From an uncultured Bacilli bacterium (GTDB lineage: Bacteria; Bacillota_I; Bacilli_A; RF39; UBA660), in contig CALVXT010000002.1 of assembly GCA_944371545.1 (NCBI GenBank), forward strand, positions 1-36,201: 36,201 bases of DNA, given 5' to 3'. The notes beneath the pieces were generated by a model. That model was not told the DNA's origin and did no database searches. It saw nothing but the letters and a program-made list of their open reading frames with translations. Shown piece by piece: positions 2,012 to 17,199 of this stretch (position 1 is its first letter; every line of letters starts with the position of its first letter). The translations under genes and the position numbers were made by a program.

Positions 2012-2671
2012 ATGAATATAGCAATTATTGAAGATGACGAAAAAATAAGAGAAGAATTAGCTATTCTTTTAAAAAAAGAAAACTACACTCCTCATATAAT
2101 CACAAATTTTGAAAATATTTTGGAAGAAATCTTAAAAATACCATGTGATTTAATTCTTCTAGACATTAATCTTCCTTATGAAGATGGTTTTACCATTTGT
2201 GAAAAAATAAAAAAAGAAAAAGATATCCCCATTATTTTTGTAACTAGCAGATCAAAAGAAGAAGATGAACTAAAAAGTATTCGTTTAGGTGGAATAGATT
2301 TTTTAGCTAAACCTTATAAAAAACTCATTTTATTAGAGAAAATCAAACGAGCATTAAACATCACAAACCCAATTCATTACCAAGAAATAACAATCAATGA
2401 CGTTACTCTAAATCTACATTTATCTACAATAAAAAAAGAAAATACAGAAACAGAATTAACAAGAAATGAATTTCGTATCCTTTACTACTTCTATTTAAAA
2501 CCTCATGAACTTATTACCAAAGAAGATTTATTAGAGTCTTTATGGAATGATAAATATTATTTAGATGAAAATATTTTAAATGTTAGTATGAATCGCTTAC
2601 GAAAAAAATTAGAAGAAATCGGTGCTAAAGACTTTATCAAAACAAAACGTGGAGTTGGTTACTATATATGA
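2012..2671 (+). CDS. OmpR/PhoB-family response regulator (BceR-like)
   Basis: Receiver domain (IAIIEDDE..., LILLDINLP acidic pocket and phospho-acceptor region) plus a C-terminal winged helix (LTRNEFRILYYF ... RGVGYYI). RBS aaaggag lies upstream. The stop overlaps the next start (ATGA at 2668-2671). Confidence 0.85.
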   Translation: MNIAIIEDDEKIREELAILLKKENYTPHIITNFENILEEILKIPCDLILLDINLPYEDGFTICEKIKKEKDIPIIFVTSRSKEEDELKSIRLGGIDFLAKPYKKLILLEKIKRALNITNPIHYQEITINDVTLNLHLSTIKKENTETELTRNEFRILYYFYLKPHELITKEDLLESLWNDKYYLDENILNVSMNRLRKKLEEIGAKDFIKTKRGVGYYI

Positions 2672-3656
2672 ATATCTTTGAATTTTTAGAAAGTAAAATT
2701 ACAAATATTTTATATCATTGTACTTTTTTTCTTATTTTATATATTTTTTTTAGATTATGTAAAATTCCCTTAAATATCATTTTTTTAATCATGATTGCTA
2801 TTATTTTTTCATACATATTCACTTTATGGATAGAATATTTTTGTTTAAAAAGAAAGGCTCAAAAAATAATAAATCAAGTCGATGCCTTACAAGAAAAATA
2901 TTTAATTACTGAACTGTTAAAGAAACCAAAAAATTTAGAAAATCAAGCATATTACTATGCCCTTTTAAAAGCTACGAAAGCTATGAATGATAAAATAAGT
3001 GAACTAGAAAGTTCTAAAAAAGAATATGAAGAATATATAGAATCATTTGTTCATGAAATAAAAACACCTCTTGCCGCTATGTTATTAACAATTGACAATC
3101 AAAAAAATAAAGATTTGAAACCAGAAATAGATAAAATTGATGAGTTAACTGAACAAATTCTTTATTATGCAAGAAGTCAAAATCCTGAAAAAGACTATTT
3201 TATAAAAAAAGTACATTTAGAAGACGTTATTCATTCTTTAATTTTAAAAAATCAATTTTATTTACTTCAAAATAAAATTCAAGTTCATGTCTATAATGTA
3301 AAAACAGAAGTATACACAGATGAGAAATGGTTAAGCTTTATTCTCTCGCAAATTTTAAGTAATGCCATAAAATACAAAAAAATGAACACAGTCAAATCAA
3401 AATTTATACAACCAAAAATGAAAAAAATCTCAACTTAATCATTGAAGATAATGGAATTGGTATTAAAGAAAGTGAATTTCCCAGAGTATTTGAAAAAGGT
3501 TTCACTGGGAGTAATCGAACAAAAAAATATGCCACAGGTATGGGATTATATTTAGCTAAAAAGTTATCAGAAAGCTTAAACATTCATTTAAAAATCGAAT
3601 CAAAATATCAAGAATTTACAAAAGTTATTCTAGAATTTTCTCTTCAAAAAAAATAA
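2668..3656 (+). pseudogene. BceS-like intramembrane-sensing histidine kinase, interrupted by a -1 frameshift in an A7 run
   Basis: The N-terminal ORF (2668-3438) has two TM segments and an H-box (FVHEIKTPLAAM). It leaves the family pattern after NAIKYKK and stops at 3436-3438. A different frame continues with ...NEHSQIKIYTTKNEKNLNLIIEDNGIGIKESEFPRVFEKGFTGSNRTKKYATGMGLYLAKKL... (N, G1 and G2 ATP-binding boxes) to TAA at 3654-3656. One extra A in the A7 run at 3376-3382 would fuse both parts into a protein of about 329 aa. Confidence 0.8.
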
Positions 3657-3690
3657 TAACTTAACATATTATTTATGATATAATATAAAT

Positions 3691-3798
3691 GTCAAAGATA
3701 TTGACATAAAAAAGGGAATACTTAACATTCGCTGGTTGAGTACTCACCTTAAGGTTGATAAGTACTTAATTCATCACGAATTGAGTACTATTTTTTTA
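3691..3798 (+). ncRNA. Candidate antitoxin sRNA, copy 1 (ends approximate)
   Basis: Extended -10 TGaTATAAT at 3676-3684. A 5' hairpin gtcaa-agata-ttgac follows. An intrinsic terminator has stem agtacttaattc (3761-3772) / gaattgagtact (3778-3789) with loop atcac, then T7 at 3791-3797. There is no ORF. It is convergent with the 3' end of the minus-strand peptide gene and overlaps it. Confidence 0.5.
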
Positions 3799-3877
3799 TT
3801 AAAATTATCAATAAAGATAAAATCAATAACAGATTAGTTAAGAGTAAAAAGGTGATTAGTAAATCCTTTTTCTTCAT
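3788..3877 (-). CDS. 29-aa hydrophobic peptide MKKKDLLITFLLLTNLLLILSLLIILIKK, type I toxin-like, copy 1
   Basis: Hand translation gives ATG at 3877 and TAG at 3790-3788. SD gaaaggag lies upstream. Putative sigma-A promoter on the minus strand: TTGCAA (3962-3967), 17-nt spacer, TATATT (3939-3944). The peptide is a single TM helix flanked by Lys residues. It was missed by the ORF track because of its size. Confidence 0.55.
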   Translation of the reverse strand: MKKKDLLITFLLLTNLLLILSLLIILIKK

Positions 3878-4016
3878 AACTTCTCTTCTCCTTTCAAAAA
3901 GAAGATAAGTACTCATGTGTAAATATTCCCTCAAACAAAATATAACATATACCTTCTATAATTGCAAATAGCAAAAAAATAGAATAAAAACAAAGAATTT
4001 ATGGTATAATGAAATT

Positions 4017-4127
4017 GTCAAAAGAAATGACATAAAAAAGGGAATACTTAACATTCGCTGGTTGAGTACTCACCTTATATTTTAAGTGAAGTACTTAATT
4101 CATCACGAATTGAGTACTATTTTTTTA
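4017..4127 (+). ncRNA. Candidate antitoxin sRNA, copy 2 (ends approximate)
   Basis: Extended -10 TGgTATAAT at 4002-4010. The terminator is identical to copy 1: stem 4090-4101 / 4107-4118, then T7 at 4120-4126. Same architecture as copy 1. Confidence 0.5.
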
Positions 4128-4206
4128 TTAAAATTATCAATAAAGATAAAATCAATAACAGATTAGTTAAGAGTAAAAAGGTGATTAGTAAATCCTTTTT
4201 CTTCAT
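4117..4206 (-). CDS. 29-aa hydrophobic peptide, type I toxin-like, copy 2 (coding sequence identical to copy 1)
   Basis: ATG at 4206, TAG at 4119-4117. Minus-strand promoter: TTGAAA (4292-4297), 17-nt spacer, TATATT (4269-4274). Confidence 0.55.
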   Translation of the reverse strand: MKKKDLLITFLLLTNLLLILSLLIILIKK

Positions 4207-4317
4207 AACTTCTCTTCTCCTTTCAAAAAGAAGATAAGTACTCATGTGCTAAATATTCCCTTAAGCCAAATATAACATAAACAAACTAGGTTTTCAAATT
4301 TATAGAAAGGACATAAT

Positions 4318-4683
4318 ATGTTAGAAACAAATGAAATTTTAGAAAAATTAAGTAAATCAAAATTTAGAAATAGCTTTCACTTAAAAGATAAAGAAAAGAA
4401 TTATATCAAAGAAAAAGGAAAGGATACAATAGAAAGACATGCAAAAGATTTTATCTCAAAAAGACTAGCACCAGAAAATCCTTTAAATGATGGCAAACAA
4501 ACACCTATGAAAGGACATCCTGTTTTTATAGCTCAACATGCTACAGCAACATGTTGTCGAAGTTGTCTTTACAAATGGCATCACATTCCTAAAAATAAAG
4601 AATTAACGACCTCAGAACAAACCTATATCATAAATATAATTATGACTTGGATAAAAAAAGAATTAGCTCATAAAACAAGCTAA
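4318..4683 (+). CDS. DUF4186 domain protein
   Basis: The translation contains the block I associate with DUF4186: DGKQTPMKGHPVFIAQHATATCCRSCLYKWHHIPK. RBS aaagga lies upstream. A weak hairpin ttagct/agctaa plus a T-run sits at the 3' end. Confidence 0.6.
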   Translation: MLETNEILEKLSKSKFRNSFHLKDKEKNYIKEKGKDTIERHAKDFISKRLAPENPLNDGKQTPMKGHPVFIAQHATATCCRSCLYKWHHIPKNKELTTSEQTYIINIIMTWIKKELAHKTS

Positions 4684-16945: not shown

Positions 16946-17019
16946 TGGAGCAGATGATGGGAATCGAACCCACGTGGTCAGCTTGGAAGGCTGAAGTTCT
17001 ACCATTAAACTACATCTGC
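16946..17019 (-). tRNA. tRNA-Gly (anticodon UCC), CCA encoded
   Basis: The reverse complement folds as a 74-nt cloverleaf: acceptor GCAGATG/CATCTGC, D arm GTTT..GAAC, anticodon arm TCAGC-CTTCCAA-GCTGA, T arm GTGGG-TTCGATT-CCCAT, then TCCA. Confidence 0.9.
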
Positions 17020-17123: not shown

Positions 17124-17199
17124 GCTGGATTAGCTCAGTTGGTAGAGCAACGCCCTCGTAACGCGTAGGTCGCAGGTTCGAGTCCTGTTTCCAGCACCA
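17124..17199 (+). tRNA. tRNA-Thr (anticodon CGU), CCA encoded
   Basis: 76-nt cloverleaf: GCTGGAT acceptor, GCTC-AGTTGGTA-GAGC D arm, anticodon loop CTCGTAA, T arm GCAGG-TTCGAGT-CCTGT, then ACCA. Two non-Watson-Crick pairs (7-66 T.T and 31-39 C.C). Confidence 0.8.

Follow-up and report, generated by a model that had tools for sequence, protein, structure and literature searches.

Between a histidine-kinase gene and a DUF4186 gene of an uncultured Bacilli bacterium lies a short stretch of DNA that is present twice in tandem, and the question raised by this locus is what such a repeat might encode. The locus is part of contig CALVXT010000002.1, of which positions 1 to 36,201 were analysed; this whole stretch of 36,201 nucleotides (nt) is referred to here as the window, and its G+C content is 28%. 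A preliminary description had read the repeat as a duplicated cassette similar to type I toxin-antitoxin (TA) loci, in which a gene for a small membrane peptide on the minus strand converges on a gene for an antisense small RNA (sRNA) on the plus strand. The anatomy of that reading holds, and comparative support for it comes from more than 200 related loci. It is very probable, judging by the sequence, that a peptide gene and an antisense sRNA gene are present here; that both are transcribed, that the peptide is toxic and that the pair works as a TA module is a further step, and a probable one.

The two units are arranged head to tail (Table 1) with a period of 326-330 nt, or about 329 nt, so that the tandem duplication claimed earlier is present and the elements listed for it are in place. 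A core of 160 nt (3760-3919 versus 4089-4248) is 100% identical between the units, and the flanks are 84% (3647-3751 versus 3973-4077) and 78% (3920-3969 versus 4250-4299) identical. The copies had been described as identical in the ORF and terminator and as differing in one internal sRNA hairpin; the core bears out the first part of this statement, but the segment that differs (3749-3760 versus 4075-4089) is predicted to be unpaired in both sRNAs and forms no hairpin.

The putative toxin gene is located on the minus strand of each unit. The proposed promoter, a sigma-70-type site with TTGCAA or TTGAAA separated by a 17-nt spacer from TATATT, was recovered in both copies together with a TG element, and so was the open reading frame (ORF) of 29 amino acids (aa), which is preceded by a leader of 55 nt in each unit. 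The peptide consists of MKKKD, about 20 hydrophobic residues and a terminal KK, and it is predicted to form a single-pass membrane helix with lysine-rich ends. In toxin-sense order the unit starts with short conserved segments named box0 ((A)GGGAAUAyUUAAC) and box1 (GUUGAGU[A/G]CUUGCC), followed by a hairpin that contains the Shine-Dalgarno sequence (SD) and a complementary anti-SD, and by the ORF; after the ORF come box2 (AG[U/C]ACUCAAUCUA), a loop, box3 (UAGAUUAAGU[A/G]CU) and a spacer, and the unit ends with box4 (GGyrAGUACUCAAC), a variable loop of about 8 nt, box5 (GUUAAGUAUUCCC) and a U-run. The occlusion of the SD that had been suggested is retained in the form of this hairpin, but not as a stem formed across the SD: a direct anti-SD pairing, UCUUCUUU with AAAGGAGA, is conserved family-wide instead, and in the predicted fold it is most likely this pairing that closes the SD at 3887-3905.

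For the folding of the toxin mRNA the start was set 7 nt past the -10 element and the end at the U-run. The predicted mRNAs and sRNAs of both copies fold much more stably than expected by chance (Table 1). In the minimum free energy (MFE) structures of both window mRNAs the first 13-15 nt pair with the last nucleotides ahead of the U6 run; in copy 1 the first 13 nt (3932-3920) are paired with 3712-3724, and box1 is paired with box2 (3782-3789). The 5′-3′ end pairing that had been raised as a possibility is thus predicted in both copies, and the two ends co-evolve across the family, as described below. In copy 1 an 8-nt internal loop separates box4 from box5, and the U6 run is at 3708-3713. The 3′ strand of this closing helix is the reverse complement of hairpin 1 of the sRNA.

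On the plus strand the convergent RNA of about 110 nt, with an extended -10 and a terminator over the toxin stop codon, was likewise found in both copies, its ends being assigned from these signals. The sRNA of copy 1 is composed of a 5′ hairpin (3691-3705), an A-rich linker, hairpin 1 (3712-3750, with GGGAAUACUUAAC and GUUGAGUACUCACC) and the terminator. The terminator stems cover the TAG stop codons, and in the kilobase scanned these two are the only terminator-like sites, against 0.1 expected. By construction the sRNA can pair without any mismatch with about 90 nt of the 3′ untranslated region (UTR) of the mRNA, from the stop codon to the 3′ end. It had been thought to open at the GGGAATA-type box; the box is present, but because of the position of the -10 element the sRNA probably starts at the small 5′ hairpin, about 22 nt upstream of the GGGAATAC box.

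Table 1. Features of the duplicated cassette in window coordinates; transcripts, their ends and their folds are predicted.
Feature	Position	Strand	Description
Cassette region	3647-4299		between histidine-kinase gene and DUF4186 gene
Toxin promoter, copy 1	3939-3967	-	-35 TTGCAA (3962-3967), 17-nt spacer, TG, -10 TATATT (3939-3944)
Toxin promoter, copy 2	4269-4297	-	-35 TTGAAA (4292-4297), 17-nt spacer, TG, -10 TATATT (4269-4274)
Toxin-like ORF, copy 1	3788-3877	-	29 aa, MKKKDLLITFLLLTNLLLILSLLIILIKK, then TAG
Toxin-like ORF, copy 2	4117-4206	-	29-aa peptide identical to copy 1
SD-sequestering hairpin, copy 1	3887-3905	-	anti-SD UCUUCUUU, loop, AAAGGAGA; in MFE structure
Closing helix 5′ strand, copy 1	3904-3930	-	box0 GGGAAUAUUUA (3920-3930), box1 AUGAGUACUUAUC (3904-3916)
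Closing helix 3′ strand and U-run, copy 1	3708-3748	-	box4 GGUGAGUACUCAAC (3735-3748), box5 GUUAAGUAUUCCC (3714-3726)
Predicted toxin mRNA, copy 1	3706-3932	-	~226 nt; fold -66.2 kcal/mol, z = -7.3
Predicted toxin mRNA, copy 2	4032-4262	-	~231 nt; fold -69.0 kcal/mol, z = -8.4; 15-bp 5′-3′ closing helix
Extended -10 of sRNA, copy 1	3676-3684	+	TGATATAAT
Extended -10 of sRNA, copy 2	4002-4010	+	TGGTATAAT
Predicted antisense sRNA, copy 1	3691-3798	+	~108 nt; fold -31.4 kcal/mol, z = -5.15
Predicted antisense sRNA, copy 2	4017-4127	+	~111 nt; fold -30.2 kcal/mol, z = -5.06
sRNA terminator, copy 1	3761-3789	+	12-bp stem, U7 at 3791-3797
sRNA terminator, copy 2	4090-4118	+	12-bp stem, U7 at 4120-4126

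Relatives of the cassette were collected entirely by DNA patterns and not by protein searches. An exact scan for the terminator yielded three related metagenome-assembled genomes (MAGs) with 2-3 tandem units each, a degenerate peptide pattern yielded two more MAGs, and among loci fetched via their DUF4186 neighbour a model built from the units found one diverged copy, at locus L042. From the window and L042 a non-coding pattern was derived, AGTACTCAACN{6,10}GTTAAGTNTTYCC, that lies wholly within the toxin-sense 3′UTR. This pattern, which makes no use of the ORF, matched at least 120 genome-contig stretches. The matches listed contain 124 distinct units, about 100 of them with a small ATG-initiated ORF ending 45-70 nt upstream of the pattern, and 79 units pass a stricter filter for the box1 motif, an SD and an ORF of 18-40 aa. 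An independent scan of metagenome contigs, based only on the 5′UTR box, the SD and the peptide N-terminus, provided 90 more loci. The genome matches listed are nearly all MAGs labelled as uncultured Bacilli, Tenericutes, Mycoplasma, Bacillales or Erysipelotrichaceae, obtained from chicken, rabbit, goat, mouse and Hadza human guts; Firmicutes bacterium CAG:822 and Coprobacillus sp. CAG:605 were also matched. Some records with the cassette (L091, L096, L139, L161 and L162) or with DUF4186 (L016, L021, L078 and others) are titled Muribaculaceae, Gastranaerophilales or Alphaproteobacteria; their sequences are near those of the Bacilli MAGs, and the labels look like the result of mis-binning or mislabelling.

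As judged from its pattern of substitution, the ORF is a conserved gene under purifying selection. There are 69 distinct peptides of 24-29 aa among 76 distinct coding sequences (CDS), and they fall into a 29-aa subtype, to which the window belongs (consensus MKKKDLLISFLILIIILLIVSLMILCIKK), and a subtype of 24-27 aa (for example MTKKDFLIFALIIIILLLIILLFK and MHKKDFLILSLIIIIFLLIGLLFTLVK). Equal frequencies of synonymous and non-synonymous change, named in the preliminary description as an outcome that would speak against a gene, are not what is found: pairwise ratios of non-synonymous to synonymous substitution (NG86 dN/dS) are 0.22 in the 29-aa group, 0.26 in the 24-aa group and 0.30 in the 27-aa group. 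Across the 76 distinct CDS the entropies of the three codon positions are 12.0, 5.7 and 15.4, and frame 0 is open in every one of them (76/76), against none for frame +1 (0/76). Within the window clade the ORF has accumulated about nine synonymous changes versus two conservative replacements, and one copy is frameshifted. No stop codon interrupts the frame opposite the toxin ORF in 67 of 76 members (plus strand, in the window at 3736-3837 and 4086-4166); the idea that the sRNA strand might itself contain an ORF was set aside, as the open frame is most likely an expected by-product of the Leu/Ile/Lys codon make-up. A 42-aa extended ORF has no homologue in the protein database, and four peptide motifs looked for in the literature library were found in no paper.

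Signals for the transcription of both RNAs are conserved as well. A toxin promoter of the form TTGnnn-17-TATAAT is located upstream of box0 in nearly every intact unit, and the start is thereby placed 7-8 nt after TATAAT, at the purine preceding GGGAA. The sRNA promoter is recognizable in 103 of the 124 units (99 with the TG extension, 89 with a spacer of 17 nt), and its -10 element lies 34-35 nt ahead of the GGGAA box in 69 of these 103, the distance in the window clade being 29-30 nt. Between this -10 element and the box the alignment contains a small hairpin with compensatory arms (GCAAG/CUUGC, GAGA/UCUC, GAAG/CUUC and GCAGG/CCUGC), a sequence pattern that fits a 5′-terminal protective stem on the sRNA. 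The sRNA terminator also has compensatory pairs (UA 44 and CG 38, CG 54 and UA 13, UA 62 and CG 12), and the 10 nt that follow its stem include 7-9 T in 103 of the 104 scored units and 6 T in the remaining one. Members of the 24-27-aa subfamily have the T-run too, although their ORF stops some 20 nt earlier, and lysine codons therefore do not explain it. The median length of the predicted sRNA in the family is 112 nt. The SD-sequestering hairpin is found family-wide and its arms covary (CUUUC/GAAAG and CCUCC/GGAGG).

In both hairpins of the sRNA there is a G.U wobble where the mRNA strand has an A.C mismatch. For the terminator, whose wobble position was left free by all search patterns, 77 of 84 sequences have U.G; the hairpin-1 wobble falls inside the search pattern, and its conservation is no independent evidence. 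Because a G.U pair in the sRNA becomes A.C in the mRNA, the hairpins look tuned to the sRNA strand and weakened on the mRNA strand.

The closing helix of the toxin mRNA, in which box0 and box1 pair with box4 and box5, is part of the MFE structure in 79 of 79 predicted mRNAs. Here the first ~27 nt of the mRNA pair with the last ~35 nt, and these arms co-evolve. Cognate 5′/3′ duplexes have a mean stability of -34.2 kcal/mol versus -31.9 kcal/mol for non-cognate ones, with 0 of 5000 permutations as good, and shuffled 5′ ends reach -9.6 kcal/mol. In the independent metagenome set, chosen by the 5′UTR and the peptide N-terminus, the values are -34.3 and -31.9 kcal/mol (0/5000), and the best duplex stops directly before the T-run in nearly all of 76 independent units. 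Compensatory variants of the helix (GGAGAUA/UAUCUCC and GGAAGA/UCUUCC) occur along with a covarying indel (GGAAAUAC/GUAUUUCC against GGAAUAC/GUAUUCC). RNAalifold, applied to the alignment of full mRNAs, recovered the box1:box4 and box2:box3 helices and missed box0:box5 and the SD hairpin, which fall in gapped columns and for which duplex energies were used.

In this architecture box1 has, going by complementarity, two possible partners, box2 and box4. In the pattern-selected set the variable base of box1, box2 and box3 is G, C and G in 45 units and A, U and A in 36, with 0 discordant. Box4 was rejected as a covarying partner of box1: in the unbiased set it is almost always AGUACUCAAC and remains AGUACUC regardless of the state of box1, and the sole variant that looks compensatory is AACACUC with box1 GAGUGCU. 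A switch from a co-transcriptional to a mature fold is possible, by analogy with the fold switching known in other type I toxin mRNAs (PMC6733600). The mRNA 5′UTR is nearly the same sequence as hairpin 1 of the sRNA minus its loop, and because of this resemblance the sRNA and the mRNA 5′ end would compete for one 3′UTR segment. In some members (L103:2574-2819, L107:7607-7850, L115:5321-5560, L149:3123-3367 and L153:5168-5418) about 25 nt of extra sequence (..GATTAAGTAnnnCTTAAT..) is inserted between box3 and box4; the insert, which looks partly duplicated from the box3 region, could fold into an extra hairpin.

The number of units at a site is variable. The site between the histidine-kinase (HK) and DUF4186 genes, which is shared by the five closest species only, holds one unit in L008, two in the window, L002/L007, L003 and L010, and at least four in L001 plus L006. 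Since the tandem repeat breaks short-read assemblies, such copy numbers are lower bounds; MAG contigs end within the array in L001 and L005 (contig end) and in L004 and L006 (contig start), and L001 and L006 are two contigs of one MAG that abut at the array. A synteny search by DUF4186 found no empty HK-DUF4186 site that would mark the insertion boundaries. Mixed arrays of both peptide subtypes are encountered at L132:5483-6058 and L123:140-1700, for example with a 24-aa MTKKDF... unit adjoining a 29-aa MKKKDLL... unit, and the subtypes therefore coexist within one genome. The frameshifted toxin copy has retained its 3′UTR/hairpin-1 pattern and its terminator. In at least 22 of 124 units the sRNA promoter, terminator and hairpin-1 pattern stand beside an absent or broken toxin gene (among them L090, L097, L119, L151, L152, L155, L173, L175 and L196), and in many of these the toxin promoter, 5′UTR and ORF are all gone; in sequence they look like orphan antitoxin genes or decayed cassettes. 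Variable copy number, mixed arrays, a frameshifted toxin and toxin-less units are behaviour typical of TA loci.

Several observations weigh against a TA module that works in the manner outlined. Expression on either strand and the toxicity of the peptide are predictions from nucleotide sequence, and the hosts are all uncultured MAGs. The peptide belongs to no known toxin family by Pfam and NCBIfam, which gave no match to four representative peptides at E values up to 10, and the (A)PxxxG(C) motif of Fst/Ldr was not found in the window or consensus peptides, nor was there a Pfam match. Pattern scans of IMG/VR viral contigs, PLSDB plasmids and GenBank phages found no copies, and because of this a plasmid-type addiction role is not indicated. 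Antitoxin-only and toxin-only units were scored at 22 versus 17, a split that is not interpretable as a loss asymmetry, since the pattern rules mis-score real variants such as those with CGCACTC terminators. As to the RNA, the MFE structures of the window clade pair box1 with box2 and box3 with box4 within a terminal helix of 13-15 bp, whereas those of most other members pair box1 with box4, which makes the inner closing helix ambiguous in the models of the window clade. The co-variation of box1, box2 and box3 amounts to only three or more independent switches on the tree, and in the unbiased set 62 units are concordant and 7 discordant. When the 3′UTR was masked to mimic bound sRNA, the SD was not closed further: in the thermodynamic model its mean probability of being unpaired was 0.25 in the free mRNA versus 0.35 in the masked one. 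The translational arm of control is thus unsupported by the model, masking having raised rather than lowered SD accessibility, and it is kept here as an analogy to bsrG/SR4 only.

Some of these points would sit equally well with a small membrane protein that has an ordinary role, for instance as a regulator or a complex subunit, and that is controlled by a cis-antisense RNA while being neither a toxin nor part of an addiction or stress module. Purifying selection fits any functional peptide, the toxicity of this one is something we infer, the window copy is located among housekeeping genes (a two-component system, DUF4186 and a DcuC carrier), and no plasmid or phage copies turned up in PLSDB, IMG/VR or the GenBank phages. 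Against this, the position of the gene is not conserved, occupancy of the HK-DUF4186 site being confined to the five closest species, and the cassette model found nothing by DUF4186 in the other loci of the neighbour scan. A needed peptide would also not be expected to range from one to at least four copies at one site with two subtypes in one array, or to occur alongside pseudogenised ORFs and sRNA-only remnants, and an mRNA locked twice, by the closing helix and by SD sequestration, is typical of toxins (PMC3834814) and odd for such a peptide. An ordinary membrane protein is in our view unlikely.

A second way to account for the repeat is to regard it as non-coding, like a miniature inverted-repeat transposable element (MITE-like) or a repetitive extragenic palindrome (REP-like), with inverted-repeat bounds and with an ORF and promoters that are incidental. 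The unit does hold an inverted repeat, GGGAATAyTTA ... TAAGTATTCCC, and it is multi-copy and breaks MAG assemblies at contig ends. However, the unit reaches beyond the inverted repeat, with the two conserved promoters located outside it, and the arms of the repeat allow G.U but not A.C on the transcribed strand, a sign of constraint at the RNA level. Matches to a model built from related units were limited to the two copies at this single locus in the 36-kb window, and dN/dS values of 0.2-0.3 together with the open frame 0 speak for a coding sequence; a non-coding element is highly improbable. Hardly any credence can be given to the view that the hairpins merely serve the neighbouring histidine kinase and DUF4186 genes as bidirectional terminators or attenuators: the cassette does lie between convergent and divergent neighbours and does have hairpins with U-runs on both strands, but it is present in more than 200 loci with unrelated neighbours, and it has its own promoters on both strands and a conserved ORF.

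The TA reading places the cassette in a known kind, the type I TA with a 3′-overlapping antisense RNA, within which it appears from its sequence to be a previously uncatalogued family. It combines a putative small hydrophobic membrane peptide (24-29 aa) that has its own promoter and SD, an apparent antisense RNA gene with a conserved promoter, a terminator and ~90 nt of complementarity, and a toxin mRNA that is predicted to be structured and translationally restrained. The database T1TAdb lists 24 families, of which all Gram-positive ones have 3′-side antisense RNAs (PMC8594479), and the arrangement here fits that pattern. Type I antitoxin RNAs are represented in Rfam by 13 families (PMC8594479); a search of 3600-4350 against Rfam at E values up to 10 gave chance-level matches to unrelated families, the best with 24.6 bits versus a gathering score of 115.

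Three systems had been named for comparison, Fst/RNAII, TxpA/RatA and BsrG/SR4, and among these BsrG/SR4 has the closest RNA architecture (PMC3834814), with Fst being excluded by its peptide motif. Probing of bsrG mRNA revealed a helix between nt 1-35 at the 5′ end and nt 232-262 at the 3′ end; once SR4 has bound to the complementary region on the 3′ side, nt 1-33 are left single-stranded and the SD helix is extended from 4 to 8 bp, and SR4 promotes decay of the mRNA (PMC3834814). Both systems have convergent genes and an antisense RNA with complementarity to the 3′ portion of the toxin mRNA (PMC3834814, PMC8594479). In both, a long helix joins the first ~35 nt to a segment near the mRNA 3′ end with the SD stem just inside it, binding of the antitoxin to the 3′ strand would release the 5′ strand (here a prediction), and the peptide is small, with a single transmembrane helix and a lysine-rich C-terminus. 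The present family differs in that its peptide has 24-29 aa versus 38 aa for BsrG, and its sRNA ~110 nt versus 183 nt for SR4. Its U-run follows directly after the closing helix with no separate terminator stem-loop, the overlap of its sRNA with the ORF extends at most over the stop codon and the two codons before it (with no overlap in the 24-27-aa subfamily), the mRNA 5′UTR is a near-copy of sRNA hairpin 1, and the hosts are uncultured gut Bacilli in which no prophage context was seen. Homology to the BsrE-G-H group, judged via family models only, received no support from Pfam, NCBIfam or Rfam at E values up to 10. The two are not demonstrably homologous, and the architectural match is better read, by analogy, as a resemblance in working than as common descent.

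Duplex formation triggers mRNA decay in txpA/RatA of B. subtilis and sprG/SprF of S. aureus, and TxpA is a peptide of 59 aa. These are also Gram-positive type I systems with convergent genes and overlap at the 3′ ends (PMC8594479). They differ from the present family in that their antisense RNA overlaps the ORF and their toxins are longer, and in that the peptide and sRNA here are without a match in Pfam, NCBIfam or Rfam. In fst/RNAII (par, pAD1) of Enterococcus faecalis the convergent transcripts share the terminator region, a 5′ stem-loop sequesters the SD, an intramolecular helix shields the 5′ end of the mRNA, and the toxin has about 30 aa, all features with a counterpart here. Peptides of the Fst family are marked, however, by an APxxxG / PxxxGC motif (PMC8309996), and the window peptide and both family consensus peptides differ from Fst/Ldr in being devoid of Pro and Gly; a few family variants carry a single G or P substitution. 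Moreover, the fst/RNAII interaction takes place mainly outside the overlap, at 5′ direct repeats (PMC8594479), whereas here the overlap itself is the complementary region. Among Gram-negative systems, a long-distance 5′-3′ interaction keeps the full-length hok mRNA inert until 3′ processing (PMC8309996), and aapA1 mRNA forms metastable structures (PMC6733600). The locking of the full-length toxin mRNA in hok/Sok and aapA1/IsoA1 is similar to that proposed here, but there it is the 5′ region that the antisense RNA binds, and 3′ trimming is required for activation, whereas here the sRNA would target the 3′ strand of the lock; the peptides are unrelated.

If the pair is a TA module, it may work as follows. 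The constitutive-looking promoter would yield an mRNA of ~230 nt for the 29-aa peptide, and this mRNA would fold shut by the pairing of box0 and box1 with box4 and box5, in a long helix that ends at the U-run, with the SD held in its own anti-SD hairpin just inside the closing helix. The outcome would be a stable, poorly translated message with both ends buried. The extended -10 promoter would drive an antitoxin sRNA of ~110 nt that targets the mRNA 3′UTR, including the 3′ strand of the closing helix, in competition with the mRNA 5′ end. By analogy with bsrG/SR4, first contact would be made through exposed loops, namely that of the terminator and the variable one of 8 nt in hairpin 1, which lies opposite the internal loop of the closing helix. 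From there the sRNA would zip up into a long duplex and expel the mRNA 5′ end, the duplex would mark the mRNA for decay by RNase III and a 5′-exonuclease, and sRNA binding may also tighten the SD hairpin. Were the sRNA to be lost, the stable mRNA would be translated and the peptide would presumably damage the membrane.

A bolder version of this mechanism, which we regard as doubtful, is a three-way competition between RNA segments, in which the toxin mRNA contains a built-in cis copy of the recognition domain of its antitoxin. Box1 would then have mutually exclusive, covarying partners, box2 during transcription and box4 in the mature mRNA; the strand-asymmetric wobbles, G.U in the sRNA and A.C in the mRNA, would bias the outcome; and the many paralogous copies would be told apart by the variable 8-nt loop, which would confer cognate specificity. 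Such a mechanism, if true, would be a compact and portable design for an RNA switch, and the family would also be the first of type I TA systems to be characterised in the reduced-genome, uncultured Bacilli of the gut.

Two observations concern the surroundings of the cassette. The histidine-kinase gene upstream of it is split by a frameshift within window positions 3380-3445: the HisKA part (2668-3438) ends at a stop codon, and the HATPase_c part follows in a different frame, from about 3441 to 3656, with the break close to an A-run (gaaaaaaatc). The frameshift could be an assembly error or could make this a genuine pseudogene. At the gathering threshold the only Rfam matches in the 36-kb window are two divergent tRNA genes, at 16949-17019 on the minus strand and 17124-17196 on the plus strand.

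The result is not a new principle. Type I TA loci escape automatic annotation, and this family is present in more than 200 loci from metagenomes of chicken, rabbit, goat, mouse and human gut; its hosts are uncultured Bacilli with small genomes whose regulatory biology is barely known. As a practical matter, MAG assemblies are broken by the tandem arrays at the cassette locus. The two independently retrieved sets, with their natural compensatory mutations, offer a testbed for how a 5′-3′ lock of the bsrG/SR4 type is opened, and the family adds a peptide class to the candidate membrane toxins and could supply orthogonal parts for RNA control.

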